Below are positions 1 through 19,367 of a DNA stretch of 20,000 nt, piece by piece. Below the pieces are notes generated by a model that ran no database searches, was not told where the DNA came from, and was given only the letters and a program-made list of their open reading frames with translations. The DNA lies in the IMG/VR virus record IMGVR_UViG_2888703769_000002; one strand, 5' to 3'. The translations under genes and the position numbers were made by a program. The stretch's first letter is position 1; each line of letters starts with the position of its first letter. This stretch comes from an uncultured virus (IMG/VR IMGVR_UViG_2888703769_000002). Its lineage: Duplodnaviria > Heunggongvirae > Uroviricota > Caudoviricetes.

Positions 1-1109
1 TCATGGAACGGCGTCAACTCTGCGACTAATTCCTTACGCAACTCTTCCGCGCGCTTATGAAGCTTTTCTCCGTATTCTTTCGCAAAATCCAAGTCGAGAA
101 TATAGCCATTAGCTTCTAAGTCGACGATTACGTACAGTAACGGAATTTCAACGGTTTGATAATAGTCCAAAATCGTCGGTATTTTCGCCATGTGATAACG
201 CTGAAATTCGTACAGCTTCCACGTTAATTCCGTATCCTTCGCGGCGTAAACTAGCGCTATGTCTAACGGAACTTCTTTAAATTGCGCATTCCTGCCGAAC
301 AAAGCATCGAAAGTGTCTGCCGGTGTTTTTAAATATTTAGGCGCTAAGTCTTTGAGCTTGAACGAACCGGCTCCACCTAATGCCCGGTCACTCTCGTTTT
401 CGTTCAGAAGGTGCATCGCGGTCATCGTATCCCAAGCGACGCCTTTCAAATCGAATCCGTGCCGCCTAAGCATCGCAATATCGAATATCGCGTTGTGTAA
501 AACCTTGCCGATTGATTCGTCGTTAAATACAGGCGCCAGACCTTCGAGTACATATGCGCGACTTAACTGCTCGCAATCAACGTGCTCCACCGGTATATAA
601 ACGTGCCAGTCAGCGTTTGGCAATGTTAGCGAAAGCCCAACGATTACGTCCGTATAAACATCTACGCCAGTCGTCTCGGTATCAACTGCGATAATTTCTT
701 CGTTATTTAATGCATCGATCAGCGCCTGAAATCGTTCCTCAGTCGTAATTAATTCGTAATTATTCGGCGTATTCTCGACCATCTGCCGCAAGGTTTCTTC
801 GCGCTGCGCCTCCTGAAGCGTCTTCCATAACCGGAGCGCCTCCGCCTTGCTGAACGCTTTAGGGTTGCCGGCCTTATTAACGCAGTCAGCCGGATCACGC
901 GCCAGCTTGCCCGCATCCATGGCCGCCTTGACTTCCGTTACCCTTTTGCGATCGGCATCCGATAGCTTCATCGCGAATATCTTGCGCCAGCTTTCCTCAA
1001 TCGGCTCGGCGGTTTTGGCTTTCGCCTTCCGCTTGGCCGTCGCCTCTACTGCGTCAGATTTCGGCGCCGCCGGCTTCAGCGCGTTCAAGTTTAACCGTAA
1101 GCCTTCCAT
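1..1109 (-). CDS. polA: Phage family A DNA polymerase, N-terminal part with 3'-5' exonuclease domain; runs off the window edge
   Basis: Absent from the ORF track because there is no stop in the window. Hand translation from ATG 1109 (SD AAGGAGG): MEGLRLNLNALKPAAPK... with ExoI IAVDTETTGVDVYTDVIVGLSL, ExoII KVLHNAIFDIAML, ExoIII LVYAAKDTELTWKLY, then DLEANGYILD at the start of the PolA polymerase domain. Confidence 0.9.
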   Translation of the reverse strand, partial: MEGLRLNLNALKPAAPKSDAVEATAKRKAKAKTAEPIEESWRKIFAMKLSDADRKRVTEVKAAMDAGKLARDPADCVNKAGNPKAFSKAEALRLWKTLQEAQREETLRQMVENTPNNYELITTEERFQALIDALNNEEIIAVDTETTGVDVYTDVIVGLSLTLPNADWHVYIPVEHVDCEQLSRAYVLEGLAPVFNDESIGKVLHNAIFDIAMLRRHGFDLKGVAWDTMTAMHLLNENESDRALGGAGSFKLKDLAPKYLKTPADTFDALFGRNAQFKEVPLDIALVYAAKDTELTWKLYEFQRYHMAKIPTILDYYQTVEIPLLYVIVDLEANGYILDLDFAKEYGEKLHKRAEELRKELVAELTPFH

Positions 1110-1143
1110 CCGTCGTCCTCCTTCCTCGCGAAGTAATTGCGGG

Positions 1144-1308
1144 TTACTTTTCGATTGTATCTGCTACGGTCATAATACCGAACGCAATGACAGCGATAGC
1201 CGCGATAGGCAACGTTGCCCAAGGCGATTCATTTGCGCCATGACCCGCTGAGAATGCGACTGATATCCCGAGCGCATAAGATAGCGCGCGTTCTTTTTTC
1301 CGATTCAT
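1144..1308 (-). CDS. Small hypothetical membrane protein (54 aa)
   Basis: MNRKKERALSYALGISVAFSAG...WATLPIAAIAVIAFGIM has two hydrophobic segments. Its ATG overlaps the upstream TGA (ATGA coupling at 1305-1308). Confidence 0.7.
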   Translation of the reverse strand: MNRKKERALSYALGISVAFSAGHGANESPWATLPIAAIAVIAFGIMTVADTIEK

Positions 1309-1484
1309 AAATCGACCGCCCCCGTCCATCTTCGTTTATATTCCGCTTCGTTCTCCGCATACCACTCCGACCAGCAAGACGTCCCGCACGCATAAACCTC
1401 GAAGAGCGAATCGTAAATTGCGGATCGCCCTTCGTAAAGGTTAGCGTTACATGCGGCGCAGACGGAGGCCGGCTTAGCGGTCAA
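1305..1484 (-). CDS. Small putative zinc-binding protein (59 aa)
   Basis: TTG 1484 follows GAGG. MTAKPASVCAACNANLY...YACGTSCW carries a CxxC...CxxxC pattern. It overlaps both neighbouring genes as expected in an operon. Confidence 0.65.
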   Translation of the reverse strand: MTAKPASVCAACNANLYEGRSAIYDSLFEVYACGTSCWSEWYAENEAEYKRRWTGAVDL

Positions 1485-2736
1485 AGCGCGCCTCGACTGG
1501 CGTAATGAGTTCGACTTTAAGAAAATATCCATGCACTGTATCCACGATGGACCCACCAGATGCTTGTTTGAGGACTTCGATAATATCCCCGTTTGCCACA
1601 CGTCCAGCACACTGATTGTCTACTACTCTCGCGATATCACCTTTCTTATACTCGCCAACCTTGCGTCCGATCTTCGCCCACTTCGCTTCTTCGACTTGCT
1701 GGCGTTCGATCTCGGCGACTTCCTCTTCGGATAAAATTTCGAGCTGATCCGGCGTTGCATAGCCGAAGCGCTCGGCATCGCCCACGATTCGAATACGTTT
1801 ACCCTCAGGATGATCGAAGTTATTATATCCAACCTCGTAAATCTTACCGTTCTCAAACCCGCGTAAAGGGTACGGTCCGCCGCCTGAAAGCAACCGCACT
1901 TTAGCGCCTCTTTTGAATTTAGCGCGTGCTGCTGCGTCTTTAGCTTCGGCAACTTCTTCGTCAGTGGCGCGTACAACTTCCGATGCAGCGACGTACCAAA
2001 CTTCTCCGTCTAAGAGACGTCGCGCTTCAAAATTCGGGTTGTTTCCCGCCTCAATTAACTCGATTATGTCATCGGTATCAAACAGGTGGCCGAATTCCTC
2101 ACGGACCACCTTCGCATAATCACCGACCTTCAGGCGCTCAGGCTTCGGCTCAGCTTCTGCGGTTACGGCGCTTACTTTGCGGTAGAATACGAAGTCACGG
2201 TTACTAGCGTCATACTCGTCTCCATCATCGTCAGTGATCCAAGGATCTCTATAACTATCGAATCGAACAATTTCGTAATATTCCTCATCGGTTAAGTAGT
2301 CCGGAGGATCATCGAACTTAACGTAATCGCCCACATTCGCCTCATCTGCGTCAATCCGTACGTACCCCGCTTCACCCTTCAACTTAGCCACGTCGGATTT
2401 TAACGATTCGATTTCGCCTTCCGCGGAGCTGACGCGTTCTTCTAAGGACGGATCGGTGCTAGCGGATACTTTGCAGAAGAGTACGTAATCGTCGTCATCT
2501 CTAAACCGCTCATCATCCACGTCGTCCAAGAATCTAACGTCGTCCGCATGGTCGGCATCCTCCGTAATTTTGTAGAAAGCGCCATAGGTAATGTCGTAAC
2601 CGCCTTTGTCGGCCAGTACCAAATCGCCCATCTTCGGTAAACCTTCCGCCTTCACATATTCCGCACCGCCATACGAAACCTTCGTAATTTCACCGTTCAC
2701 CATATCGAGTGTCTTAACGCCGTTTAATTTCGCCAT
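1474..2736 (-). CDS. Hypothetical modular phage protein (420 aa) with repeated beta-rich SH3/KOW-like segments
   Basis: Long ORF with SD GGAGG. Repeated motifs KMGDLV, NVGDYVK, KVGDYAKV, KRGAKVR and KKGDIARV. Confidence 0.75.
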   Translation of the reverse strand: MAKLNGVKTLDMVNGEITKVSYGGAEYVKAEGLPKMGDLVLADKGGYDITYGAFYKITEDADHADDVRFLDDVDDERFRDDDDYVLFCKVSASTDPSLEERVSSAEGEIESLKSDVAKLKGEAGYVRIDADEANVGDYVKFDDPPDYLTDEEYYEIVRFDSYRDPWITDDDGDEYDASNRDFVFYRKVSAVTAEAEPKPERLKVGDYAKVVREEFGHLFDTDDIIELIEAGNNPNFEARRLLDGEVWYVAASEVVRATDEEVAEAKDAAARAKFKRGAKVRLLSGGGPYPLRGFENGKIYEVGYNNFDHPEGKRIRIVGDAERFGYATPDQLEILSEEEVAEIERQQVEEAKWAKIGRKVGEYKKGDIARVVDNQCAGRVANGDIIEVLKQASGGSIVDTVHGYFLKVELITPVEARFDR

Positions 2737-3171
2737 TTATACCGCCTCCGATTCGTTAATTTTCGTAAGATCTACGTCTTCACGTCGAAAGTTCAAATCC
2801 ATCCGTACCCACCGCTTGCCGTCCTTCGACTGCGGCCCCCAATACTCGGTAAGCTCGCGATTCTCGAACATCCACACGGTAGGTACCGGACCACGGCCGA
2901 TAAGCACGCCGATAAAGTAATCGACTTCATCGAGCTTATATGGTGTCCGGTCGCTTTTCCGCGCCTGAACGATGAGGCTGCCGCGCTTCTTTCGATCATA
3001 AATCGTCTTCACCTGAAACGTTTTCCACTCGCCACTCAACGGACACTTTGCGCTAATATCGAACGCTTCTTCCGTTTCGGACGTACTGACCGCCTGCCAG
3101 CCGCTAGCCAGCAGCGCAGCACGTGCGATCAGTTCCGAATACTTGCCGGTATCTTCTGCTTTATGCGCCAT
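2737..3171 (-). CDS. PD-(D/E)XK-family nuclease (Holliday-junction resolvase-like or PDDEXK_5-like)
   Basis: ATG 3171 follows AAGGAGG. Motifs GKYSELIARAALLASGW, AFDIS, FQVKT and YKLDEVDYFIGV. It lies directly downstream of the SSB gene. Confidence 0.7.
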   Translation of the reverse strand: MAHKAEDTGKYSELIARAALLASGWQAVSTSETEEAFDISAKCPLSGEWKTFQVKTIYDRKKRGSLIVQARKSDRTPYKLDEVDYFIGVLIGRGPVPTVWMFENRELTEYWGPQSKDGKRWVRMDLNFRREDVDLTKINESEAV

Positions 3172-3205
3172 ATAAGCGCCTCCTTTTCGTTTGGTTGGTA
3201 CGTGA

Positions 3206-3976
3206 TTAGAACGGTAATTCTTCGTCGCTAGGCTTCCAAGGCTCAGGTTCGTTAGAGTCTGTCGCACTGCCGCCCTCTAACGGAGGCAATACAGATTTCT
3301 TAACACCGTCTTTCGCTTCGTGTAGCAGCTTAACAATGTCGCTTTCTTCACGAAAGTTTGCGAGCTCTTCGTACTTGTAATCGATGCCGATAAATGCTTT
3401 TGCTTCTTCAATGACTTCGTCAGGGAGATCACCCGTTTCCAACGAGTACGTTTTATCTGCCTGTTTAAAGTGAACCGCCTGACCTACGAGTGTGTAATCC
3501 GGAAGGATCTTCTTCGCAGGTTTCTCGGCCTTGTCATAGTCGTCGATTAAATTGTTCGCGTGGAACTCAGCGATATCAATTACGCGATAGGTTTTATATT
3601 TCGGATCGTAGACCGGAATCATAAAAAACATCTTACGTTGCGCTCCAGCTTTGCACGAAATGCATTCATCCTTACCGGGACGGAAATACTGCTGTAATTC
3701 TTCCGTGCCTACTTTATCGTGTGGAGAGTGCAGGCATGTGTGTTTGCGGAATTTGTGATCATAACCTTTCCCCGTGTATTCTTTATTTTCGTGAACAAAG
3801 TAGATGTACCAATCGTCAGGCTGCGCGAGAATGACTAAGTTGCGGCCGTCTTTGTTGATTTCTCCATAGCTTCCAACGCGAACATATCGCGTAACACCTT
3901 CCGGGAATTCACTTTCGCCACTTGACGCTTTATCCCGTTCCTCTTCACGTTTCTTTAAGATATCTCGAATGCTCAT
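3206..3976 (-). CDS. Single-stranded DNA-binding protein, T4 gp32-like
   Basis: Start reassigned to ATG 3976 (SD AGGGGG; MSIRDILKK). His/Cys ligands (FVH...HTC...CISC) and an acidic tail ending SDEELPF, which is typical of SSBs. Replication-module context. Confidence 0.75.
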   Translation of the reverse strand: MSIRDILKKREEERDKASSGESEFPEGVTRYVRVGSYGEINKDGRNLVILAQPDDWYIYFVHENKEYTGKGYDHKFRKHTCLHSPHDKVGTEELQQYFRPGKDECISCKAGAQRKMFFMIPVYDPKYKTYRVIDIAEFHANNLIDDYDKAEKPAKKILPDYTLVGQAVHFKQADKTYSLETGDLPDEVIEEAKAFIGIDYKYEELANFREESDIVKLLHEAKDGVKKSVLPPLEGGSATDSNEPEPWKPSDEELPF

Positions 3977-4012
3977 TCGTTTTCCCCCTACGTTTTTATT
4001 AAGGCTTTTCGC

Positions 4013-4111
4013 CCTCGCAAAATGCCGGTATCTGCGCCCGAAACGCCGCCAGCGCTTGGCAGTAGCGACGCGACACGGATTACCTAACGGCCGCCCCGGC
4101 ATTCTCCGAGG
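4013..4111 (-). ncRNA. Putative structured RNA element in the SSB 5' leader
   Basis: Non-coding GC-rich stretch. Minus-strand CCUCGGAGAAUGCCGG pairs with CCGGCAUUUUGCGAGG and encloses an inner GCGUCGCUA/UGGCGGCGU stem. Confidence 0.45.
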
Positions 4112-4122
4112 ACGCGACGCGC

Positions 4123-4221
4123 CTAGCATGCGTCGTCTTCGCCAATTTGCGTCCACATGCCGAAAAGTATTAATCCGATGATGACGGCGGCAATCGGTCC
4201 CACCCACGAAAGATCAGACAT
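4123..4221 (-). CDS. Unannotated 32-aa single-pass membrane peptide
   Basis: SD GAAAGGAG at 4231-4238 and ATG 4221. MSDLSWVGPIAAVIIGLILFGMWTQIGEDDAC*. Overlaps the stop of the upstream gene. Confidence 0.65.
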   Translation of the reverse strand: MSDLSWVGPIAAVIIGLILFGMWTQIGEDDAC

Positions 4222-4732
4222 ACGCCGCAACTCCTTTCGCCGCTTTTGTAAGCCTGCGTTTTAATTCGAAGGATTCAGCGGGTAATTCGTCAATCCGCAT
4301 CTGAACCGCATTGATTCGCGCTTGGTACGCCATCTTCTTCGCTTTTGAACGCGTTCGTTTAAGCTCGGCCGTCAGGTGCGCTATTTCTTCGTGAAGTTCC
4401 GCGGCATAATTTTCGTTATTTTGAACCGCAGCCTCTACGCTTTGTTTCATCGTGTAATACGCTTCGTTGATAAATCGGATCGCCGTATTCTTTTCGGAAG
4501 GATGAACGGTCAGTACATGATCGCTATTCAGCGCGAAGAGTATAATGACTCCTTTTCCGCCGTACATTCGCGCTTCCTTACCGTTAGAATCTACGGTGAT
4601 CCCGAGATACTTTACGTGCTGAAGCTTTTGCGCAATCCATTTACGCGCTACGTGTAAATTCGTAATATTGTAACGTTCCTTCAGGCGCTTGCGTGCGTGG
4701 TGCGAAAACTTGACCTGACCGGCGGTAATCAT
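4214..4732 (-). CDS. Hypothetical protein with a DUF4258/RelE-like N-terminus and a coiled-coil C-terminus
   Basis: VKFSHHARKRLKERY resembles the 'HA..R..ER' start of DUF4258/RelE-fold proteins. The C-terminus is helical. ATGA coupling with the upstream ORF. Confidence 0.6.
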   Translation of the reverse strand: MITAGQVKFSHHARKRLKERYNITNLHVARKWIAQKLQHVKYLGITVDSNGKEARMYGGKGVIILFALNSDHVLTVHPSEKNTAIRFINEAYYTMKQSVEAAVQNNENYAAELHEEIAHLTAELKRTRSKAKKMAYQARINAVQMRIDELPAESFELKRRLTKAAKGVAAYV

Positions 4733-4890
4733 CCGACGCGCACCGCCTTAATCGATGTAGCCGGGAAATAGTCGGCCGGATCTTCGTCGTGCGGCCATGC
4801 GCCTTGGTAAATGAAATCGGTTAGTTTGCGCTCATCTAGCGCTAAAAGCGTTTGAGATTCGTTAAATGTGGGTAAATTCGATGTATGCAT
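4729..4890 (-). CDS. Unannotated hypothetical protein (53 aa)
   Basis: SD GGAGG at 4901-4905 and ATG 4890. MHTSNLPTFNESQTLLALDERKLTDFIYQGAWPHDEDPADYFPATSIKAVRVG*. Its stop overlaps the next ATG. Confidence 0.65.
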   Translation of the reverse strand: MHTSNLPTFNESQTLLALDERKLTDFIYQGAWPHDEDPADYFPATSIKAVRVG

Positions 4891-4921
4891 AGTACGTTAG
4901 CCTCCGTTATTTTAAGGATAA

Positions 4922-5024
4922 TCGCACTAGGCCGAGGACATGTTCGCATAATTGTTCTCTTGAATTCGTTGACAATATGCAATACAATGAGGACGTAGCG
5001 AAAGTCCTTCGGGCCTAGCTGCGA
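4922..5024 (-). ncRNA. Putative structured RNA or processing element downstream of the sigma-like gene
   Basis: Outer arms UCGCAGCUAGGCC / GGCCUAGUGCGA enclose hairpins AGGAC/GUCCU and GCAUAUUGU/ACAAUUAUGC. Confidence 0.45.
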
Positions 5025-5032
5025 CAGAAATA

Positions 5033-5560
5033 TTAAGCTGTTAATTCGCGTTGACAGTTTGATCGGAATCGTTGGATAAACTTTCGATGGGACGGAGCAT
5101 TTCCTCCAAAACGTTGCGCCAACAACGTGGAAACTTCCGTATCGTTTGTACATCCGCGAGTCCAAGTATCGAGAATAAGTTTTTTTCTTTCGTCGTCCTG
5201 CGCCAACAGGGCGACTTTTTCTTTAAGCAAAACCGCGTCCTCAACACTCGCCAAAGTGTCTTCCGGCTCCCAAACGGTTCCTTCTTCGTTAATTGCTTCG
5301 ATTGCGATTTCGTCCCTAGATCGTCTATTCTTCACAAATCTATGCCGGGTTTCGCGAATAATGCGCTGTATCAACGCCTTTTTTTCGCGTCCATTTTCCG
5401 CAAGATTTTCTAACGTCCTTCCGATCGCTTGATAGCACTCCTGCTCAAAGGAGGTAAAATCCGGAATTAGATGGGCGATTCGTTCCGCTTCCTTAGTTAC
5501 GTAGGGAATCGCACCACTGTCGGCTGCTAACTGAAGTCTATTAAATTGTTTTTGTTCCAA
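5033..5560 (-). CDS. Phage sigma-70/ECF-like RNA polymerase sigma factor or transcriptional activator (175 aa)
   Basis: Start reassigned to TTG 5560 (SD GAAAGGAG at 5569-5576). Region-2-like FEQECYQAIGRTL...LIQRIIRETRHRFVKNRR, linker EPEDTLASVEDAVL, and region-4-like DERKKLILDTWTRGCTNDTEVSTLLA...HRKFIQRFR. Confidence 0.55.
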   Translation of the reverse strand: MEQKQFNRLQLAADSGAIPYVTKEAERIAHLIPDFTSFEQECYQAIGRTLENLAENGREKKALIQRIIRETRHRFVKNRRSRDEIAIEAINEEGTVWEPEDTLASVEDAVLLKEKVALLAQDDERKKLILDTWTRGCTNDTEVSTLLAQRFGGNAPSHRKFIQRFRSNCQRELTA

Positions 5561-5576
5561 TTTGATATCTCCTTTC

Positions 5577-5622
5577 GCCTTACACTTATATAACGGGTAG
5601 GCAGTAAATGATTTTGCGACAT
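5577..5622 (-). promoter_or_regulatory. 46-bp conserved element, copy 1; putative phage-sigma promoter
   Basis: Minus strand ATGTCGCAAAAT-N8-GCCTACCCGTTATATAAGTGTAAGGC. Apart from the N8 spacer it differs from 17130-17175 at one base. It sits immediately upstream of the SD. Confidence 0.7.
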
Positions 5623-5693
5623 TTCTTTTTAAAAACTTTTTATTAATTTCTTCTATGACCATATCGTACCAAAAATTCGTTTGTTTTTTCGGA

Positions 5694-5731
5694 AAGTTGC
5701 GATATTTATATTATGGAAATTTAGTCAACTT
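5694..5731. promoter_or_regulatory. Candidate AimR operator (AAGTTG-N26-CAACTT)
   Basis: A 6-bp inverted repeat with a 26-bp spacer just downstream of aimP and its terminator. The geometry resembles the SPbeta AimR site (6-bp arms, about 25-bp spacer). An extended -10 TGGTACGAT follows on the minus strand at 5663-5671. Confidence 0.45.
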
Positions 5732-5741
5732 CTTGTATAGA

Positions 5742-5767
5742 CAAAAAGAAAAGAGCCCGAAGGCTCT
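5742..5767 (-). terminator. Rho-independent terminator after aimP
   Basis: AGAGCC-UUCG-GGCUCU followed by UUUCUUUUU on the minus strand. Confidence 0.85.
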
Positions 5768-5777
5768 GCTTGTATTA

Positions 5778-5906
5778 TCAACCTCCGGGGCGAAGTTCAG
5801 CTGTTCCGAAGGTCTTATCACTGCTTGCGTATTCAAACCCTTTAAGCTGTCCGGCTGCTGAAAAAAACGCTGCGATCACTAAAACACTCAATAAAATCTT
5901 CTTCAA
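5778..5906 (-). CDS. aimP: Arbitrium signalling pre-pro-peptide AimP (42 aa; predicted mature peptide ELRPGG)
   Basis: SD AAGGAG at 5917-5922 and TTG 5906. MKKILLSVLVIAAFFSAAGQLKGFEYASSDKTFGTA-ELRPGG* has a Sec signal peptide and a C-terminal hexapeptide after Ala. It lies directly after the aimR-like gene. Confidence 0.9.
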   Translation of the reverse strand: MKKILLSVLVIAAFFSAAGQLKGFEYASSDKTFGTAELRPGG

Positions 5907-7026
5907 AATAAAACATCTCCTTTTTGTTGTGTTTGTAACTACTCAATGTTTCTAATAAATAAGGGTGTATGCCTGTGGAGAGTAGATCTGAAGCTATAAG
6001 CGCTGAAATAAAGAAGTTTGACTTATATAAGAATTTACGATGGCCTTCAAGAAGATTATCAACACCCCCTTTTTCATAGATCTTTAAGCACTCATAAAAA
6101 CTGTCTCCTTCTTCTAAATAAACCACCTCCTCTAAAGTTTCAAGGTATTTACTTAACTTTTGTGTATCACTTCTATACTGATACGCTTTTGCCATTACTA
6201 AGTTATTATAAGAGTCATTTATGAGATAATCTACACCAGTTAGTCGCATTAGAGAATAACTTTTTTCAAAATATTTAATTGACTCGTCTGGATTATGAAG
6301 TAATTTGGTCATTCCTAGAAGATAGGTGGCATCTGCTTTTAATTTTGGAGATATATTAGCTTGTAGTATGATATTCGCGTAATGTGCCGCCCCTTTAAGA
6401 TTATTTAATTTGAGATATGTGGGAGCTATCATTTCCGCAAACCTATGAATATAACACTCCTTTATAAATAGCTCTCTTTTATCATTCATTTTATTTATGC
6501 TTCTTCCAATTTCCATCGCCTCAGAAATCACGAGGAAGTACTCCCCCAAACTGTAATTTCCATAACACTTGTAAATTCCAGCTAGTATGTGAAGCTCTTT
6601 ATCTTTTGAAGCCTTGAATTCGTTCATTTCTTGAATCATCTCTTTAATCGATATTTTCATATCCATATAATTTAATATAGTACGATACATAGAAACATAC
6701 GATTTTAGATGATATTTCCCCTTATGTTCATTAATTAAGTGTTCAAGTAGCTTAGTGTTTCTGGTTATCGCAGCATACTCAAATGCTTGTTTAACCATCT
6801 CTTTAGAGGTATCGTCTAACTGTATGCACCAGCTCGAAATCTTACTGTCTGGATCTTTTGGAAATAATAAGTGCGCCATAACTACTAATGCCCTAAAGCC
6901 GATCGTGCCATCTTTTTTAAATTTTGTCATCGATGATTTATCAACACGTAGTTCTTTTGCTATCTGAGAATACTTTATATCATGGTCCTCGATGAAGTCA
7001 CAAAGTTCTCGTCTTATCGCCTCCAA
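5842..7026 (-). CDS. aimR: Arbitrium receptor AimR (RRNPP family; HTH plus TPR)
   Basis: 394 aa with an N-terminal XRE-like HTH. WCIQLD...VKQAFEYA matches the AimR YCLNLD...ARSALEYA motif, and KFLYKSNFFISALIASDLLSTG..LLETL matches the AimR C-terminus. A secreted peptide gene follows. Confidence 0.9.
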   Translation of the reverse strand: MEAIRRELCDFIEDHDIKYSQIAKELRVDKSSMTKFKKDGTIGFRALVVMAHLLFPKDPDSKISSWCIQLDDTSKEMVKQAFEYAAITRNTKLLEHLINEHKGKYHLKSYVSMYRTILNYMDMKISIKEMIQEMNEFKASKDKELHILAGIYKCYGNYSLGEYFLVISEAMEIGRSINKMNDKRELFIKECYIHRFAEMIAPTYLKLNNLKGAAHYANIILQANISPKLKADATYLLGMTKLLHNPDESIKYFEKSYSLMRLTGVDYLINDSYNNLVMAKAYQYRSDTQKLSKYLETLEEVVYLEEGDSFYECLKIYEKGGVDNLLEGHRKFLYKSNFFISALIASDLLSTGIHPYLLETLSSYKHNKKEMFYFEEDFIECFSDRSVFFSSRTA

Positions 7027-7054
7027 TTTTGGAGAGCCCCCTTTCTGCCGTTTC

Positions 7055-7082
7055 TTGAATTATTTTCAATTTAGAGTATAAT
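7055..7082 (+). promoter_or_regulatory. Putative sigma-A promoter for the HTH gene pair
   Basis: TTGAAT (7055-7060), a 16-bp spacer and TATAAT (7077-7082), divergent from aimR. Confidence 0.55.
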
Positions 7083-7098
7083 TGAATCATACGATAAA

Positions 7099-7144
7099 TG
7101 TTCAGCAGTGTCTACATTTTTTGTTCAGTAGTGCCGACATTTTT
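7099..7144. repeat. Tandem 23-bp direct repeat; putative operator pair
   Basis: TGTTCAGCAGTGTCTACATTTTT / TGTTCAGTAGTGCCGACATTTTT (20 of 23 identical), between the divergent aimR and HTH genes. Confidence 0.75.
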
Positions 7145-7161
7145 TAAAAGGAGTATTTAAA

Positions 7162-7383
7162 ATGGTTGATTTTTCGCCCTTATACCAGACTTTAAAAGAA
7201 AGAGGACTAAAGCCTAGTCACCTAAGAAAATGCATTTCTCCTGACACACAGGCAAGTATTAAGAAGCAGCACATGACTAAAAACGCTACTATGTACATAG
7301 GTACGATCGATGTTATATGCCAATTTCTCGAGGTTCCTATCGAGAAGGTTGTTCGAATTGTACCTGACGATGTGGAAAATTAA
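7162..7383 (+). CDS. Cro/C1-type HTH transcriptional regulator (HTH_26-like)
   Basis: SD AAGGAG. MVDFSPLYQTLKERGLK...TIDVICQFLEVPIEKVV has the typical small Cro/C1 pattern. Confidence 0.8.
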   Translation: MVDFSPLYQTLKERGLKPSHLRKCISPDTQASIKKQHMTKNATMYIGTIDVICQFLEVPIEKVVRIVPDDVEN

Positions 7384-7436
7384 ACGGAAATAGTCTATAA
7401 TTTCCTCCGTGACACCTTATCTGATGTAGTACGGAG

Positions 7437-7676
7437 GTGTTTATTACGTTTAAGGTCGGCAAATGTCGGATACCCGAACTATGCAAGAAACGCGGAATCA
7501 GTCTCAGTCAACTCGCAGCAATGGTCGGAGTATCAAAAACGCAAATGTCCGATTACGTCAGCCTTCGGAACCTGCCGAGCATCGAACGAACCTACAATAT
7601 CGCAATGATGCTCGGTTGCGCGCCCGAAGATCTGTACGAATGGATTGAGGTATCCGACAGCAACACGGAGGGTTAA
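7437..7676 (+). CDS. XRE-family HTH transcriptional regulator (start codon uncertain)
   Basis: RGISLSQLAAMVGVSKTQMSDYVSLRNLPSIERTYNIAMMLGCAPEDLY is a canonical XRE HTH. Confidence 0.85.
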   Translation: MFITFKVGKCRIPELCKKRGISLSQLAAMVGVSKTQMSDYVSLRNLPSIERTYNIAMMLGCAPEDLYEWIEVSDSNTEG

Positions 7677-7692
7677 TACAACCTCCGCCGAC

Positions 7693-8688
7693 CTAAAGTA
7701 CGGGAATTCCCGAACATAAACGTAAAGTATTTCTTACGACCTCCGCACGATCATACACGTCTTGCAACGCTTCTGTACCGCGCTTTATAAGTAGTTCATC
7801 AGCGTCTTTCACCTCCGTAATATAACCGTGCGCAAGCCGCACCTTTCCGCTCAAATAACGCTCAATCTCCCGCCGTAACTTTTCGCCAGCTTTGTCGTTA
7901 TCTGTAACCACCGTTAAATATTCGATAGGTGACTGCGCAATTATGTCCGCCTTCTGTAAATTAAATGTGCTGCCTCCGGTTCCGATCGCCGGTACACCCG
8001 CAGACCGCCACGCCATGGCATCGATTTCCGCCTCGCATATCACCGCGCTTTTAATCCGCTGCGCATATACGAGATCCATTCCGTAAACTAAATACCGGAT
8101 AGGCAAGCCGCCTTTTACGTACCAGAACGCCTTCCCCTTCGTTGCCCTATACTTAACGTTTGCCAGCCGGCCGTTAGGAAGCCGCCAAGGGATCGCGACT
8201 GCGTTACCGGCAAGTGATACGCCGGCCTCTTCTTGTACTGCGGTCGCAATGCCCCGGCCCGTCAGGTAAGCGTTAGCCCCTGGCGCCGTGTCCGCGAGGA
8301 CCGATTCCGCTAAAGGCTCCGGCTTCGTGACGGCTTTTAATTTCGGGAGCCGCAGCGCCATACGTCCGCCTTCAGCCGCCGGTGCATACGTTTCCAATAA
8401 GTAATCGATTGCGTCGTCTTCGGTTTCGCCGCGCAGGAAAGCGAGCAGTTTAACGAACCCGCCCCGCGCAAACTCTTCGTCATAGGCGCCTGAGTCGCCC
8501 CAATAGCCGGCTTTTGCCGACACTGTGTCTTCGAGGTATACGTAAAAGCTCGGAGTCCGATCGTATCTGAATGGACTGGCGGCCAGCAGGCGTTCGCCGC
8601 CCCACGTCGGCCGGGTCCAGTCGAATTGTTCGAGTTCATACCGAATGTCGACGTCTACAGAACGTCCACCCAAATTTAATATCGGCAA
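7693..8688 (-). CDS. Phage DNA primase (TOPRIM)
   Basis: Degenerate Zn-ribbon SPFRYDRTPSF, YLTGRGI, VICEAEIDAMA and VTDNDKAGEK. Located next to the helicase. Confidence 0.88.
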   Translation of the reverse strand: MPILNLGGRSVDVDIRYELEQFDWTRPTWGGERLLAASPFRYDRTPSFYVYLEDTVSAKAGYWGDSGAYDEEFARGGFVKLLAFLRGETEDDAIDYLLETYAPAAEGGRMALRLPKLKAVTKPEPLAESVLADTAPGANAYLTGRGIATAVQEEAGVSLAGNAVAIPWRLPNGRLANVKYRATKGKAFWYVKGGLPIRYLVYGMDLVYAQRIKSAVICEAEIDAMAWRSAGVPAIGTGGSTFNLQKADIIAQSPIEYLTVVTDNDKAGEKLRREIERYLSGKVRLAHGYITEVKDADELLIKRGTEALQDVYDRAEVVRNTLRLCSGIPVL

Positions 8689-8822
8689 TTCGAGACACTT
8701 CCTTTCGAGACTTGTAAATTATATTACGACATTGTTACGAAAATTACAGTCGCAATTTGTCGAAACTATTCAAAAATTTAGATGTAATTGTTGACAATAT
8801 CATCCGGTAAATTCCAAACGAT

Positions 8823-10217
8823 CTAAAACTCGAACACGTCCGCAGCCCCGGCGCCCATTTCCGGCTGTTTTACTACGCCGATTTGCGGCAAATAGATGAT
8901 CTCTGCGACTTCCCCTTCGCCGCCGTCGCGCCCTTTGTTCAATCCGATCAAGCCGCGGCCTTCTTTCGCGTTCGTATCAACTGCGATCAATAACGCAGCA
9001 TCTTCGAGCAGGGCTTTCGTTTTCTTGACGTCCTTACGCTGCGGCAGCTTAAGCTCGCGCGCTCCGTCTTCCGTTTCTTTCTCGTCATCCTCATCTGCCT
9101 GTGTGAGCGCAAAGATCGTCGTTTTCGTATGCCCGGCCAGACGGCGCAGTTTTTGCGAAGTATTAGCCGCGTCTCCGCCTGCCGTCTTTGACGTATTGGC
9201 TTCGTAGTCGAGGTAATAAAACGGATCTACAAGCACGACGTCGGCTTTCGTTTCGATAATGTCCGATTTTAGATCGCGCAGGGTTCTTGAGCCGAAGTCT
9301 TCGTCGTCGACAGCTCGCACCGTAATGTTTCCCGGAATGATTTCGTTAAGACGATCAAGGAATTCCATAAAACCCGCCTCGAACTCGTCGGATAGTTTGC
9401 CCTGACGTACGTCGCGAGAATTGAAGCCGGCTTCCATATCGACGCCGTCCAAAGTCGCAGTCGTAACGCCCATGGTTCCGGAAATCGATACGTACAGACG
9501 CACCAACACTTCGTACCAGCCCATTTCCATCGACCAAATCAGAACGTTCGCCCCCTGCATCGCACAGTTAGTGACCTCTTCTAACGATACGGCCGATTTA
9601 CCCCGGCCCGACTTTCCGTAGATCACGTACACGTTCGACGAAACGTAGCCGCCCATTGCCTTATTAACAAAATCGAATTTGCTGCGCCAGATCCGAAAGG
9701 ACTCGCCGGCCTTACGGTTTTCATATTCCGCTTTAAACTTGTCGATGTCCCGTTTGATATCCGTCCCGACCGAATTTCGAACGCTTGTTCTCATTTTAAG
9801 ACTTTCGGCCTGCCCCGTCAACCACTCGAAGAATTTTCCCATATCTCCGCTTTTTTGCGCTTCAATAAATCGTTTTTCGAGCTGCGGCTCCTGAACTTGG
9901 CGATTGGTTTCCGGATCAATACGTCCGTTCATCAGCTCGATAAATTCGCGCTCGGCTGCCCGGTCCTTGAGGTTTTTCGCAAGGTAATCGTAACTGGCTT
10001 CGATATTAAAATCCGGCTGGAATTCCGGTACCTCATTCGCAACCATCTCGGCAGTCGGCGCTTGGCCTCGGTGTTTCTCCGCGTAATCCATAACGTACCG
10101 GAAGGCCTTGCGTTCGCCCTGCGTTTGGAAGTCGGCTTCGGAAACATTGAAGCGCAGAAGGGCGTTCGGATCGTTCGCTTCGATGGCTTTCGATATTAGC
10201 AAAGTTCCATACTGCAT
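8823..10217 (-). CDS. DnaB-like (SF4) replicative helicase
   Basis: Walker A GKSGRGKS, WSMEM, Walker B VLVDPFY, ALTQ, EDAA and NKGRDG. ATG 10217 follows GGAGGAG. Confidence 0.9.
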   Translation of the reverse strand: MQYGTLLISKAIEANDPNALLRFNVSEADFQTQGERKAFRYVMDYAEKHRGQAPTAEMVANEVPEFQPDFNIEASYDYLAKNLKDRAAEREFIELMNGRIDPETNRQVQEPQLEKRFIEAQKSGDMGKFFEWLTGQAESLKMRTSVRNSVGTDIKRDIDKFKAEYENRKAGESFRIWRSKFDFVNKAMGGYVSSNVYVIYGKSGRGKSAVSLEEVTNCAMQGANVLIWSMEMGWYEVLVRLYVSISGTMGVTTATLDGVDMEAGFNSRDVRQGKLSDEFEAGFMEFLDRLNEIIPGNITVRAVDDEDFGSRTLRDLKSDIIETKADVVLVDPFYYLDYEANTSKTAGGDAANTSQKLRRLAGHTKTTIFALTQADEDDEKETEDGARELKLPQRKDVKKTKALLEDAALLIAVDTNAKEGRGLIGLNKGRDGGEGEVAEIIYLPQIGVVKQPEMGAGAADVFEF

Positions 10218-10963
10218 CAAGATCTCCTCCGTTTCTTTTCTTGAATTTTGATGTTACGTTCATATACAAACTTTGGAAGCGGAAACAGAAGTCCTGTTCT
10301 TTCTCTCCACAGTTCAATAGAACTTCTCTGGTCAGCCTTACCCTCTACTAAATCCCTTGGGTTTTCATAGCACCACGTCACGTACTTTTCGAATTCACTA
10401 GGCGTTAAACCGTTTATTAATGCCAGATCACTGGCAACGTTATCGAATTTTTTCTGAGCCTCCTCACATAAAGATTTAGCCCACTCAAAAGGATTAATAG
10501 CGCCTTTATAACTATTAAGATCTCTGCTCAGAAAGACTAAATTTCCAACATACGTTCCACCGTGCCCCACGCCTATCGCGATGAAGTGATCTACGACAAC
10601 ATCTTCCTTAGTGCCGCTTATCTGACAGGATATAATTTTTTTCGATCTTTCTTCAAATGTTTTAACCCTAATCTTCATTGGCAGGGATCGCTCTAAGCCA
10701 TTTCTTATTTCTCTTTTTCGGGCTATCACATTCTTATTTCTTCTGTAATGATCTTTTCGGTAGTTTGGATTACGTTTATAAAAAGCTCTTGAGATAGGTT
10801 TAATACATTCTTTGCACCTAGAGACCCTGCCCATAAAACCGTTATTCTGACGCGAAAAAGATTCAAGAGACTTCATCTCTTTACATGCGTTGCAAATCCT
10901 ACAAACACAAGCGACTCCATCCGTGTCGACATAAATAATCACTTTAGGAGTCCTACCTCTCAT
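10217..10963 (-). CDS. Putative free-standing HNH homing endonuclease
   Basis: N-terminal CxxC clusters and an HNH core VDHFIAI..GHGGT..GNL......LNSYKG. Visibly AT-richer than its flanks and overlaps both neighbours. Confidence 0.75.
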   Translation of the reverse strand: MRGRTPKVIIYVDTDGVACVCRICNACKEMKSLESFSRQNNGFMGRVSRCKECIKPISRAFYKRNPNYRKDHYRRNKNVIARKREIRNGLERSLPMKIRVKTFEERSKKIISCQISGTKEDVVVDHFIAIGVGHGGTYVGNLVFLSRDLNSYKGAINPFEWAKSLCEEAQKKFDNVASDLALINGLTPSEFEKYVTWCYENPRDLVEGKADQRSSIELWRERTGLLFPLPKFVYERNIKIQEKKRRRS

Positions 10964-11487
10964 TCGCTCGCCTCCCGTCTCAATTTCGCCATTACACCGT
11001 CAGCCTTCGCTTTATACTCCACATCCCCAAACGTCTCGTATAGGCGCATGTTATCGTTGTATTCGTCCAGCAACTCGTCAGTCTTCCGTTTGCGTTTCGC
11101 AACTTCCTGCGCACTTAATACCCGCGCCGTCTTCGGCGTTTCCATCGGCCCTTTCGCCCTCCCAACCGCCTCCTTTTTCGCGTAGCCTATTCCGAAAGAA
11201 TAATCATCCGCAAAATGAAACGCCGCGCCCGACGGCTCCGGATAATTCGTCTCGTCGTACTCTAAAAGGTAATCTTCCGCGAACTGTTTCCGACATACTA
11301 GCCGCAGATCCGTTTCGAACGCGTCGAGGAATTCACCGTTTATGGCGTCGGTCAGCTCGAACTCGACGTATTCACTTACGCCCCACTCATCGGTTTCCTT
11401 TACTTCGCGCCAAGCCTCGACGTAGAATATCCGATTTTCGTACCCGGCAACCGAGACGATATCTCCGAAGGTGAATTCCGTTTTCAT
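10960..11487 (-). CDS. Hypothetical protein, YodN-like
   Basis: FTFGDIVSVAGYENRIF and DELLDEYNDNMRLYETFGDVEYK resemble Bacillus YodN-family motifs (recalled, not searched). Confidence 0.55.
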   Translation of the reverse strand: MKTEFTFGDIVSVAGYENRIFYVEAWREVKETDEWGVSEYVEFELTDAINGEFLDAFETDLRLVCRKQFAEDYLLEYDETNYPEPSGAAFHFADDYSFGIGYAKKEAVGRAKGPMETPKTARVLSAQEVAKRKRKTDELLDEYNDNMRLYETFGDVEYKAKADGVMAKLRREASE

Positions 11488-12263
11488 CTACGCATCCCCC
11501 TTTTCGATTCGCCTACGAATTCAATCTCGCGGCATAGGTCGCCCACCCGATCGGCAAGACGTCGCTCACCGAATACTTGCCAAAGCTGATCGAGCGCAAT
11601 GTTGCTCGTGTAGATCGTCGGTAGCTGATTCGTTATTCTTGCGTTAATAACGGTATGCAAATCGCCGCGGAAGCCGTCCGTTGCATCGCGTACCCCTATA
11701 TCGTCCAGCACGGCAAATGGCGCCTTCTTTGCGGCCTCAAGCGCGCGATAGTACCGGGCCGCCGCCGGCTCTGCGACTGAATCCGGAACACGCGGACGGT
11801 TGAATTCGTTATAGTCGTTCTGCCACGCATTTACGTCGAGGAAATACGCCGGCCGCTGCAACGGATCGAGGCCACGCCGCAGGGAGCCGCTATAATGGAC
11901 GCGCAGCCATTCGTTAAGAAGTGCGGCGGCCGTCGTCGTCTTTCCGGTGCCCGGCGATTCGCTGAACAGATATAGGTCTTTGATGCGGTCGGCCGGCGCA
12001 ACCGGTCCGCTCTGTTCGAACTGCCGCGCAAAGGATGCCGCATAAGCCTCGGCCGCCTTATAAGCTTCGGATTGGTCAGCGCGAGCCGGCGAATTCTTCA
12101 GCGTGACAAGCCGGTACTCTTTCGGAAGCCCTGCCGCCGCTGATCGTCCTCCTCCGCCCGATGCGCCGTGCATCGCGATAAAATGCGTACAGTGCCGCGT
12201 ACATGCGTCGGTCCCGGCCGCTTTACATCCGTCAGCGAGTACGCAAGTATTTTCGTTAGTCAT
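11484..12263 (-). CDS. DnaC/IstB-like AAA+ helicase loader
   Basis: ATG 12263 follows AAGGAGG. N-terminal Cys/His cluster, Walker A SPGTGKT, Walker B VLDDIG, PTIYTSN and RLADRV. Confidence 0.85.
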   Translation of the reverse strand: MTNENTCVLADGCKAAGTDACTRHCTHFIAMHGASGGGGRSAAAGLPKEYRLVTLKNSPARADQSEAYKAAEAYAASFARQFEQSGPVAPADRIKDLYLFSESPGTGKTTTAAALLNEWLRVHYSGSLRRGLDPLQRPAYFLDVNAWQNDYNEFNRPRVPDSVAEPAAARYYRALEAAKKAPFAVLDDIGVRDATDGFRGDLHTVINARITNQLPTIYTSNIALDQLWQVFGERRLADRVGDLCREIEFVGESKRGMRR

Positions 12264-12435
12264 ATTCGCGGACCTCCTTCCGATCAATTCGTTTTCTTAT
12301 CGTTCTCTCATGCTTCGAGCGCATCCGCTTATCTGCACCCTTTACCCGGGGTTCCGGATACATTGCGTCGTAAGTCCAATCGTACCCGCTATACTTTTTA
12401 AACACCGTTGTTTTCAAGCGTCTATGGTACGTCAC
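12256..12435 (-). CDS. Unannotated basic hypothetical protein (59 aa)
   Basis: SD AAGGAGG and GTG 12435. MTYHRRLKTTVFKKYSGYDWTYDAMYPEPRVKGADKRMRSKHERTIRKRIDRKEVREYD*. Confidence 0.6.
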   Translation of the reverse strand: MTYHRRLKTTVFKKYSGYDWTYDAMYPEPRVKGADKRMRSKHERTIRKRIDRKEVREYD

Positions 12436-12452
12436 TCACGCGCCTCCTTTCG

Positions 12453-12605
12453 TTAATTCTTTCGCAGGGTAAACTCCGCTCTAACCTTCTGATCCCACGA
12501 GTTACATATGAATTTTCCGCCAGTAGCCGTGTAACCCTTTCGATTTAACCACTCGACCATAGCTTCGACTATTTCCGCCTGACTCATCGTATATTTTACG
12601 TTCAT
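12453..12605 (-). CDS. Unannotated hypothetical protein (50 aa)
   Basis: ATGA overlap with the upstream stop and SD GAGGTG. MNVKYTMSQAEIVEAMVEWLNRKGYTATGGKFICNSWDQKVRAEFTLRKN*. Confidence 0.6.
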   Translation of the reverse strand: MNVKYTMSQAEIVEAMVEWLNRKGYTATGGKFICNSWDQKVRAEFTLRKN

Positions 12606-16177: not shown

Positions 16178-16627
16178 CTAGGATATTCTCTGCAGCGAAA
16201 ACAGTTTTTCTATGGCAGCTTTAATATCTGTAAAATCATTGAACAACCTCTCAGCATACCCGTTTCTGCATTTTCGCTTTTCAAAACGGAAAGTTATTTC
16301 TCGACTGACTTCGCCCGCAGGATAATAGGCTACCCTTCTCGTTTCCGGATCTGTAATCGCAAAAATGTCTACATCGTCTTTTGTATAGTGCAGTTTTTTA
16401 TATGGGTTACGTGGGCTTGCTGATTTTCTAATGTCCGCTACTAGAACCTTGTCATCTTTCCGCTTTCCTGTTTTAACCTGTATTTTGAAATTTTCGTTCC
16501 CAATTTGCGCAACCAAATCGTACTCTAAATCTGGCTGGCTTGGATTTAAAACGACAATCCCTTGGAAAAGAAGATCTGATTCAACTAGTCTTTCTGATGC
16601 GTACCCGATCATTCCTCTGCTATTCAT
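16178..16627 (-). CDS. PD-(D/E)XK endonuclease, PDDEXK_5 / I-Ssp6803I-like
   Basis: GYASE..V...L..G..V..P.....YDLV.......KIQVKT...YTKDDVDIFA. Confidence 0.8.
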   Translation of the reverse strand: MNSRGMIGYASERLVESDLLFQGIVVLNPSQPDLEYDLVAQIGNENFKIQVKTGKRKDDKVLVADIRKSASPRNPYKKLHYTKDDVDIFAITDPETRRVAYYPAGEVSREITFRFEKRKCRNGYAERLFNDFTDIKAAIEKLFSLQRIS

Positions 16628-17076: not shown

Positions 17077-17129
17077 TCGAATTCCTCCTCTGTGTGTGTG
17101 TCGCTATCTCCCCGGCTTAACATCTGTTT

Positions 17130-17175
17130 GCCTTACACTTCTATAACGGGTAGGCTACCATCAATTTTGCGACAT
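17130..17175 (-). promoter_or_regulatory. 46-bp conserved element, copy 2; putative phage-sigma promoter of the replication operon
   Basis: Minus strand ATGTCGCAAAAT-N8-GCCTACCCGTTATAGAAGTGTAAGGC, matching 5577-5622. It lies between the int terminator and the first operon gene. Confidence 0.7.
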
Positions 17176-17234
17176 GTATTACGAAACTTTTTCGTCCGTC
17201 ATTTATAACTGCGAATCCTCTCCGGAAAATGGAC

Positions 17235-17265
17235 AAAAAAATAACCCCGCCTAAAAGACGAGGTT
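17235..17265 (-). terminator. Rho-independent terminator of the integrase gene
   Basis: AACCUCGUCU-UUU-AGGCGGGGUU followed by AUUUUUUU. It pairs fully, using G-U pairs, only on the minus strand. Confidence 0.8.
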
Positions 17266-18344: not shown

Positions 18345-18385
18345 GATTTTGAGTCGTGCGCGTCTGCCAATTCCGCCACACCGGC
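18345..18385 (-). pseudogene. 5' fragment of tRNA-Leu(CAA) at the prophage attachment junction
   Basis: GCCGGTGTGGCGGAATTGGCAGACGCGCACGACTCAAAATC is followed by non-tRNA sequence (CGCGGATAC...). The anticodon stem cannot close, and there is no T-arm or acceptor 3' strand. Confidence 0.88.
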
Positions 18386-18415
18386 ATGTAATGTCGTGTT
18401 CAACCGACGTATATA

Positions 18416-18444
18416 AATATAACATGCATTTTATAAAGTGTCAA
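18416..18444 (-). promoter_or_regulatory. Host sigma-A promoter of the tRNA-Leu(CAA) gene
   Basis: TTGACA, a 17-bp spacer and TATATT, with an extended TG. Confidence 0.8.
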
Positions 18445-19364: not shown

Positions 19365-19367
19365 AAA

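Follow-up and report, generated by a model that had tools for sequence, protein, structure and literature searches.

The locus described here raises the question of what an arbitrium system controls when the open reading frame (ORF) behind its peptide gene encodes a protein of 175 amino acids (aa) that resembles a sigma factor. It lies in a stretch of 20,000 nucleotides (nt) from the uncultured virus record IMGVR_UViG_2888703769_000002 of IMG/VR (Caudoviricetes), called the window below, which is one end of a prophage and comprises its immunity and early region; the phage is a temperate Bacillus siphovirus of about 64 kb, integrated beside a tRNA cluster. According to the accessible part of Kabel et al. 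(bioRxiv 10.1101/2025.11.23.689978), known arbitrium outputs fall into three types: SPbeta makes a small RNA (sRNA), phi3T a peptide that binds MazF, and the extended systems make small antirepressors. A first-pass annotation of the window had proposed that the receptor AimR switches on a sigma-like factor, and all the elements it listed (aimR, aimP, terminator, inverted repeat, extended -10, repeat element and 175-aa ORF) are indeed found on the minus strand where it had placed them. Our answer, to which we give slightly better than even chances and in which we infer every functional link, is that arbitrium feeds a divergent sigma factor resembling the extracytoplasmic function (ECF) group, which would drive three early operons and be subject to an antisense brake. 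In the direction of transcription, the switch comprises the following features.

5842..7026, minus strand: aimR, the arbitrium receptor (helix-turn-helix [HTH] plus tetratricopeptide repeat [TPR]), 394 aa; Pfam PF22871 AimR, E-value 5.1e-20, 72.3 bits against a cut-off of 26.7
5778..5906, minus strand: aimP pre-pro-peptide, 42 aa, overlapping the end of aimR, preceded by AAGGAG as ribosome-binding site; the N-terminus is hydrophobic and the peptide ends in AELRPGG
5742..5767, minus strand: intrinsic terminator after aimP; stem 5767-5752 of 6 bp with four GC pairs, tail TTTCTTTTTG, T-run to 5742
5694..5731, minus strand: putative AimR box AAGTTG-N26-CAACTT with an AT-rich spacer, read directly (AAGTTG at 5731-5726, CAACTT at 5699-5694)
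5663..5671, minus strand: extended -10 element TGgTACGAT without a -35, read directly (TG at 5671-5670, TACGAT at 5668-5663)
5574..5627, minus strand: copy 1 of a bipartite motif, in two blocks (5622-5611 and 5602-5577); 8 nt separate its end from the ribosome-binding site of the sigma-like gene
5033..5560, minus strand: sigma-like gene, 175 aa, TTG start, phrog_24888, assigned by profile and fold

The aimR/aimP pair is a genuine arbitrium pair. Besides its Pfam match, aimR matches phrog_1728 (E-value 6.5e-58) and 44 phage records by tblastn, several of them annotated AimR, and the encoded receptor is about 31% identical to AimR of B. subtilis phages. The aimP-like small ORFs of relatives end in AEIKVGG, AGIKVGG, ADIRPGG, SAIKVGG, SEIKVGG and AVPKPGG. 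In relatives whose junctions were inspected, a hairpin followed by a T-run is present at the position equivalent to the terminator, and all 11 inspected arbitrium-positive junctions retain aimP, the terminator, a lineage-specific repeat and a TGnTAnnAT element, the last at the equivalent position in every one of them. The transcription start predicted from the extended -10 falls at about 5656-5660, and the right half-site of the putative box is centred near -40 of this start; relatives with a 50% identical AimR still have this half-site, CAACTT, 22 nt away from the extended -10. The published AimR box, as described in the accessible part of PMC9232636, lies 3' of aimP and consists of two 6-bp half-sites separated by an AT-rich spacer of 25 bp (ATCACT-25-AGTGAT), a design with which the putative box agrees, its spacer having 26 instead of 25 bp.

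How AimR would act at this box is a separate matter. Work on phi3T and SPbeta shows that AimR acts by antitermination on the aimP transcript; there, the box is needed at a set distance behind the terminator and no promoter follows it (PMC10769878, accessible part). Antitermination fits the present locus because the order of aimP, terminator and box equals that of phi3T and SPbeta, and activation driven by AimR is possible too because a conserved extended -10 lacking a -35 stands just downstream of the box. The first-pass view of AimR as an activator of its output is thus weakened by the precedent of these two phages and kept alive by the extended -10; we take both antitermination and promoter activation as possible routes.

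The frame of the putative output gene is open from an ATG at 5662 (209 aa). Because the phrog_24888 profile, which matches over its full length (E-value 6.6e-73), covers residues 35-209 of this frame and because most homologs have 175 aa, we place the real start at the TTG at 5560, behind AAAGGAG. The family is large, with 199 clusters at 50% identity (E-value up to 1e-3). An AlphaFold model built on 136 sequences (predicted local distance difference test [pLDDT] 90.9) consists of two helical domains, residues 1-80 and 106-175, joined by a linker; an earlier model based on 36 sequences (pLDDT 75.7) gave the same kind of matches, more weakly. In a Foldseek search of the PDB, ranks 1-13 were all sigma factors, mostly ECF (SigL, SigE, SigH, AlgU) and one of them an integrative model, with a best E-value of 0.081 and a probability of 0.93. 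VIA-align, run against 48,161 chains, placed sigma-70 region 2 first (Z 7.7, root-mean-square deviation 2.4, 70 residues), and about 29 of its 50 listed rows were sigma factors. At the sequence level, the 136-sequence family profile found SigW of B. subtilis in the PDB (E-value 9.7e-4, query 6-168 aligned to chain 5-167), together with AlgU (1.7e-3) and SigH; PDB searches with the single sequence and with a 36-sequence profile found no sigma factor. An hhalign comparison with five host ECF sigmas gave 141 collinear columns (probability 62%, E-value 7.4e-5). Among the 136 relatives, sub-threshold Pfam matches to Sigma70_r2 were obtained for nine (best E-value 2.3e-4) and to Sigma70_ECF for one, 11 of the 30 nearest ESM Atlas clusters were Sigma70_r2 (score 0.96), many BFVD matches are annotated as phage sigma factors, and so is, in GenBank, the homolog of phage KLEB27-1. 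These lines are weak and none is decisive, yet they are consistent, and the protein most likely comprises sigma-2 plus sigma-4 in an ECF-like arrangement. On sequence and model evidence, we regard an origin within the sigma-70 family, followed by strong divergence, as distinctly probable; that the protein works as a sigma factor is less certain than this origin.

If it does so, the phage should carry sites for it. The element at 5627-5574 repeats with 80% identity over 54 nt at 17180-17127, which bears out the earlier observation that it also heads the replication operon, and a further copy stands at a nucleotide-metabolism operon outside the window.

17127..17180, minus strand: motif copy 2, at the head of the replication operon, behind the integrase terminator and ahead of the first operon gene

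Its core, ATGTCGCAAAA-N10-CCTACCCGTTATA, occurs exactly twice in the window, and none of 200 shuffles gives any match. The regions upstream of the sigma-like gene align as a bipartite motif with fixed spacing, and an nhmmer profile was used to seek further copies in related genomes. These include G001, which has 100% of the sampled words of the window in common and served as a near-identical genome for the phage beyond the window. Two or three copies per phage reach significance, all of them at operon heads and on the gene strand (E-values by genome):

G001: replication operon 5.5e-11, sigma-like gene 7.2e-12, dUTPase operon 6.6e-8
G006: replication operon 3.1e-3, sigma-like gene 4.3e-10, dUTPase operon 9.5e-6
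W01 (KLEB27-1): replication operon 2e-3, sigma-like gene 2.5e-10, dUTPase operon 2.1
G004: replication operon 6.5e-10, sigma-like gene 2.7e-9, dUTPase operon none found
G003: replication operon 2.8e-6 (plus 0.09), sigma-like gene 8.7e-11, dUTPase operon none found
G005: replication operon 1.6e-4, sigma-like gene 5.3e-4, dUTPase operon none found

The third copy of G001 lies about 8.8 kb past the left end of the window and heads the nucleotide-metabolism operon. The letters of the motif are lineage-specific and common to all copies within one genome, as in B. pumilus-type phages (ATGTCCCGAT...CACATGCGACTGTA). We found no sigma-70/sigma-A-type promoter on either strand at the head of the replication operon (16900-17400), and reading the motif itself as a sigma-A promoter was rejected, as no hexamer with A2 and T6 occupies a fixed position across lineages. 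To judge from its distribution, the motif would behave like the cognate promoter of the sigma-like protein.

What we consider the strongest sequence evidence for such a role comes from a mosaic provirus, G002, which matches the window with 98-99% identity at 756-5023 and at 7433-13318. The segment opposite window positions 5023-7433 (L086-L089) contains another aimR (31% identity), an aimP ending in ADIRVGA and, in the place of the sigma-like gene, a gene for a 202-aa protein with a C-terminal HTH, which belongs to another family and is homologous to phi18-2 GP52 (E-value 3e-19). Searched with nhmmer, G002 has no copy of the motif of the window. It has two copies of a motif of its own, TGCGCGGTT-N9-GGTGCATAT, one before the 202-aa HTH gene and the other before the otherwise identical dUTPase operon, where a relic of the old upstream half-motif remains. 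Regulator and motif were therefore exchanged jointly, as a cognate factor-promoter pair predicts.

The sigma-like gene is also more constant than the module that precedes it. We examined 51 viral loci of IMG/VR and four genome loci that carry this gene. A synteny of aimR, aimP and sigma in related prophages, which the first-pass annotation had suggested looking for, holds for part of them: aimR stands directly upstream (tblastn E-value up to 1e-3) in 19 of the 51 viral loci and in phage KLEB27-1, whereas the gene occurs without arbitrium in the other 32, some of which have little upstream DNA (L036, L057), and in all four genome loci. Compared with the window, AimR of the relatives is 27-50% identical and the sigma-like proteins 52-66%; because AimR identity is so far below that of the sigma-like proteins, arbitrium cassettes of different clades must have been joined to one gene. 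In B. licheniformis-type relatives (L012, L017-L025), the place of the switch is held by a divergent XRE repressor and a Peptidase_M78 protein, a pair of the ImmR/ImmA type. Remote relatives keep two small HTH genes beside the sigma-like gene, and Brevibacillus-type loci have an upstream ORF of 441-462 aa, with an HTH_3 domain in L051 and no Pfam match in L006. The order helicase, primase, switch module, sigma-like gene, phrog_5083 and DNA-binding protein is invariant, and the sigma-like gene stands after the switch module in every lineage. As other relatives carry an ImmR/ImmA-type switch at this point, the sigma-like gene is the conserved output and arbitrium one of several inputs: the former is a core gene of this phage family, the latter exchangeable.

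A further layer of control may reside at the 3' end of the sigma-like gene, where the opposite strand contains the following features.

4960..4988, plus strand: sigma-A-type promoter TTGAAT-17-TACAAT, pointing into the sigma-like gene from its 3' end
4994..5225, plus strand: candidate cis-antisense RNA, opposite the last ~190 nt of the sigma-like ORF
5111-5128, plus strand: hairpin 2, in the codons for TLLAQR
5192-5215, plus strand, T-run to 5225: intrinsic terminator hairpin, written in the codons for KEKVALLAQDD

The peptide KEKVALLAQDD is the most conserved motif of the sigma-like family. The 235-nt interval folds at -77.5 kcal/mol (z -3.79). Of 36 distinct loci, 35 have an inward promoter (at least 9 of 12 positions), compared with 7 that have one on the sense strand. 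Over 26 distinct sequences of the terminator hairpin, 98.3% of cells are paired when read antisense versus 87.2% when read sense; four of its nine pairs change on both sides, and none of 500 shuffles reaches the observed score. The hairpin at 5111-5128 shows compensatory changes in all six pairs among 23 sequences (89.1% paired versus 52% in shuffles, 0 of 500), locus L056 being excluded from this test because the alignment anchor failed there. Both hairpin loops of the unit read CGCCAA. Rfam gave no family in window positions 4000-8000 at E-values up to 1. We read the unit as a conserved cis-antisense RNA that would limit full-length sigma mRNA and read-through in lysogens; an alternative for the structures at the 3' end is that they are internal to the mRNA. 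Separately, the inward promoter is flanked, at 4905-5025, by a long-range inverted repeat, which in relatives reads CTAGACCGGAAGG ... CCTTCCGGGCTAG with lineage-specific compensatory letters. It could form a large stem in the sense 3' untranslated region or be a protein site.

RNA-seq contigs were available from three runs of one study (X9, X11 and X12), with conditions unknown and no strand given; a further run, X1, was left out as it probably represents DNA of a related strain, with many differences. The contigs agree with the window except in the tRNA region, where they show G>A at 18522 and two short deletions around 19.4-19.5 kb. They cover 5145-7669 at a depth of 88-530, including the small HTH genes at 7162-7676 (330-530). 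The X12 contig 5170-5661 has its right edge at the start predicted from the extended -10, and the aimR-aimP contig of the same run stops at 5823. In two of the three runs, the bin 4670-5336 reaches a depth of 63,000-69,000, against only 153 in X11, and contigs break off into adapter at 5122 and 5131, a sign that a short RNA of very high abundance lies at the 3' end of the sigma-like ORF. The adapter-bearing ends listed for the three runs (5122, 5122, 5131, 17303 and 17281) share one adapter and would, presumably, hint at the plus strand by way of the integrase mRNA, a hint that we did not rely on.

The rest of the prophage end is organized as follows.

7162-7676, plus strand: two HTH genes (73 and 79 aa; 7162-7383 and 7437-7676), divergent from aimR; Pfam HTH_26 and HTH_3
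17076 down to 7693, minus strand: early replication operon, with replication-initiation proteins, a DnaC-like loader, endonuclease VII, DnaB helicase and primase
18229-17264, minus strand: integrase (phrog_1, E-value 1.6e-45), with a strong terminator at its end
18628-19991: 15 tRNA genes

The small HTH pair is a candidate for the lysogeny repressors. On the minus strand, it is followed by aimR, aimP, the 175-aa ORF, phrog_30530, phrog_5083, a DNA-binding protein and the start of DNA polymerase I. Past the window, the phage in G001 continues with exonuclease, RuvC, ribonucleotide reductase and a block of dUTPase, ThyA, kinase and methylase, and then with terminase, head, tail and lysis genes. 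Three paralogues of phrog_5018, of unknown function, are present in the window: two of them (16178-16627 and 16624-17076) open the replication operon directly behind motif copy 2, and the third (2737-3267) lies within the sigma operon. Outside the window, in G001, the gene for the large subunit of ribonucleotide reductase is in two pieces with a homing-endonuclease ORF between them (L083 12882-15937; phrog_314, E-value 6.4e-42), probably an intron or an intein-free split. The same genome encodes, about 2.7 kb before the terminase genes, a 257-aa "transcriptional regulator" (L084 8372-9145; phrog_2657, with a weak ORF6N match), a candidate late-gene regulator. As regards RNA, cover over the primase/DnaB part of the replication operon (7700-10500) falls from about 180 to 18-72 and then to 0, the rest of the operon being silent; the pattern would be in line with plus-strand HTH transcripts that run on, antisense to the last part of the operon, in contigs that give no strand. 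Contigs at 18380-19992 link tRNA genes over skipped stretches and with differing letters, and probably derive from paralogous tRNA clusters elsewhere in the genome.

Assembled into one scheme, these elements would work as follows. The 175-aa ECF-like sigma would be the master lytic activator and, with the host core RNA polymerase, would read a phage-specific bipartite promoter, ATGTCGCAAAA-N10-CCTACCCGTTATAnAAGTG. Its targets would be three co-oriented early operons, encoding replication initiation, helicase and primase; sigma itself with DNA polymerase and recombination genes; and dUTPase, thymidylate synthase, kinase and methylase. Because the sigma gene sits in one of its own target operons, positive feedback would arise. 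Peptide-free AimR would bind the box behind the aimP terminator and, by allowing read-through, by helping the extended -10 that lacks a -35, or by both, let the sigma gene be transcribed; the peptide derived from AimP (...ELRPGG) would release AimR and turn this transcription off. For this input step, we draw on the position of the elements and on the published work on SPbeta and phi3T. The constitutive inward promoter behind the stop codon would produce an antisense RNA ending at the terminator in the KEKVALLAQDD codons, which may pair, through the two conserved hairpins with CGCCAA loops, with the 3' part of the sigma mRNA and so prevent full-length sigma and read-through into the downstream genes during lysogeny, a step for which we draw on conservation and the RNA contigs. 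The dependence on AimR, the binding to RNA polymerase and the use of the motif as a promoter are what we infer; the layout of the locus and its conservation, the joint exchange of gene and motif, and the RNA cover are observations.

Several results weigh against this scheme. The window protein has no Pfam match at E-values up to 1, and neither have 36 close homologs; no sigma family reaches a curated or conventional threshold for the 175-aa ORF; and a Sigma70_r2 scan of G001 detected 14 host genes and none in the prophage. In the structural searches, the Foldseek E-values are at least 0.081 and the VIA Z-scores are below 8, a range that VIA-align itself calls common for helical proteins, and the three best rows of the PDB profile search are designed helical repeat proteins, which we took as spurious; the SigW and AlgU rows near 1e-3 are weak because these designed proteins rank above them. 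The sigma-like nature claimed by the first-pass annotation is therefore made likely by fold and profile resemblance to sigma-2 plus sigma-4 and finds no echo in any curated sigma model. As to the motif, it maps poorly onto a -35/-10 geometry of 16-18 bp, its downstream half is partly palindromic (CCTAC...GTAGG) in the manner of an operator, and nhmmer found no copy of it at late genes. The putative AimR box is weak taken alone: shuffling the 165-nt interval yields a perfect 6-bp inverted repeat, spaced by 22-28, in 426 of 2000 trials (21%). Finally, the sigma-like gene is covered by RNA over 5145-5661 at a depth of 88-530, yet the replication operon (10.7-16.7 kb) and the genes beyond the sigma-like gene (1-4669) are at 0-2. 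Either antisense or another block must then separate sigma-gene RNA from early-operon expression, or the motif is not read by the sigma-like protein, although the uncovered parts (1-4669 and 10.7-16.7 kb) are a weak negative only and the strandless contigs do not directly separate sense from antisense RNA. Since RNA covers three quarters of the gene, counted from its 5' end, with the early operons silent, and a conserved candidate antisense unit stands at its 3' end, transcription of the sigma gene is not the whole switch.

These points leave room for other explanations of the same locus. The 175-aa protein could be a two-domain HTH activator of the RinA/ArpU/Alt type that binds the motif and recruits the sigma-A holoenzyme, still fed by arbitrium. 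Its C-terminal domain fits generic HTH folds as well as sigma-4 (PqqD, Z 7.5; lasso-peptide RRE, Z 7.0; small terminase, Z 6.9), it weakly matches phrog_248 "transcriptional activator" (E-value 5.4e-4), 15 of the 136 relatives match HTH_16, and the palindromic half of the motif would be a fitting site for a dimeric protein. We nonetheless find this explanation unlikely, because the N-terminal domain fits sigma region 2 repeatedly and specifically, the alignments to ECF sigmas are collinear over the full length and no sigma-A -35/-10 pair exists at or beside the motif. The palindromic half could also mark the motif as an operator, or promoter plus operator, through which the two small HTH repressors silence the three early operons, the sigma-like protein acting elsewhere, for example on middle or late genes. 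This would match the silence of the early operons while the HTH genes are well covered by RNA contigs, and the HTH pair is conserved beside the sigma-like gene in remote relatives; by reading, the XRE protein of arbitrium-less relatives has the same N-terminal HTH sequence. What makes the operator explanation rather improbable is that the second HTH gene of G002 (7437-7676) lies inside the 98-99% identical block starting at 7433, yet all motif copies were exchanged together with the sigma-like gene; the argument is incomplete because the first HTH gene (7162-7383) falls in the swapped segment, and it is joined by the spacing of the palindrome arms, which varies between 12 and 13 nt.

It could be, lastly, that the adjacency has no functional meaning, the true output being an sRNA or peptide in the 5561-5777 leader, or AimR acting on the divergent HTH promoter region, with the sigma-like gene under independent control. 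Known AimX products are small and hard to see (accessible part of Kabel et al., bioRxiv 10.1101/2025.11.23.689978), the leader measures about 95 nt and a 31-codon frame (5622-5527) begins within the motif. Against this stand the phase of the only long leader frame, which is that of the sigma ORF, and the fact that cassettes with 28-50% identical AimR are all joined at the same point, keeping terminator, box and extended -10, which makes this last explanation very doubtful. The 31-codon ORF itself was rejected as an output because it lacks a ribosome-binding site and stops after four codons in the second motif copy.

The arbitrium-fed sigma scheme can be set beside several known systems. Like the present locus, SPbeta and phi3T have an AimR/AimP pair, a terminator right after aimP, 6-bp half-sites inverted around a long AT-rich spacer and an output on the same strand. 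The output there is an sRNA or a 51-aa MazF-binding peptide, whereas here it would be a 175-aa sigma-like protein with its own three-copy motif; the spacer there is 25 bp with no promoter behind it, against 26 bp and a conserved extended -10 here. SPbeta has an operon of the sroDEF/yopM-R type, while here phrog_30530, phrog_5083, a DNA-binding protein and DNA polymerase I follow, a comparison for which no search with SPbeta gene sequences was made. Extended arbitrium systems consist of aimR-aimP-aimX, with an aimX of 29-80 aa, a convergent aimC, and aimL (Kabel et al., bioRxiv 10.1101/2025.11.23.689978, accessible part). They share with the present locus a position inside the phage immunity region, beside small HTH regulators and replication genes. 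They differ in having a 29-80-aa aimX and a convergent aimC downstream; the present locus has neither, its downstream genes are all on the same strand and its HTH pair, unlike aimC, lies upstream of aimR on the other strand. The accessible part of the same report names three AimX mechanisms, contains the word "sigma" 0 times and leaves about a fifth of arbitrium systems unassigned; the present locus would fall into its unexplained "RP/other" classes.

Phage sigma cascades (SPO1 gp28 and gp33/34, T4 gp55 and phage ECF-like sigmas) redirect host RNA polymerase to phage promoters that head blocks of genes, as proposed here for phage-specific promoters. Those cascades act in lytic programmes after infection, whereas the present factor would stand at a temperate lysis-lysogeny switch, under a peptide receptor and an antisense RNA. 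In relatives with ImmR/ImmA-type switches (L012, L024), the same sigma-like gene and motif are directly divergent from the switch module, and the input would be repressor cleavage in place of peptide sensing. The antisense unit recalls the OOP RNA of lambda, antisense to the 3' end of cII: both are short, constitutive antisense RNAs over the 3' end of a decision-regulator gene, the one described here being a candidate. Here, however, the target would favour lysis, its conserved codons contain the terminator and hairpins, and both loops have the sequence CGCCAA. In the searchable literature, limited to titles and abstracts, we did not find a wiring of arbitrium to a phage sigma factor; the passages found there concern host SigY, the SP10 sigmas and sporulation sigmas. 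The arbitrium input is thus known, and a sigma-like output class is undescribed in that literature.

The output proposed here would be a component of the transcription machinery with readable targets, and reporters in B. subtilis, together with in vitro work, would allow the path from peptide to AimR, sigma and three promoters to be reconstructed. Specificity controls already exist in nature, namely the AimR clades, the ImmR/ImmA pairs and the second regulator/motif pair of G002. The antisense unit, lying inside a coding region, would be a compact case of one sequence constrained both as protein and as RNA, and may act more generally as a lysogeny lock. More tentatively, and with somewhat less than even confidence, we propose that a family of temperate Firmicutes phages settles its choice of lysis or lysogeny by means of a private ECF-like sigma, whose gene makes up, with the cognate promoters of three early operons, an exchangeable cassette, which would receive its input from arbitrium clades, other HTH-TPR receptors or ImmR/ImmA, and be held by a cis-antisense brake with two identical kissing loops. 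If true, this would constitute a fourth class of arbitrium output, acting through RNA polymerase reprogramming with an RNA brake.

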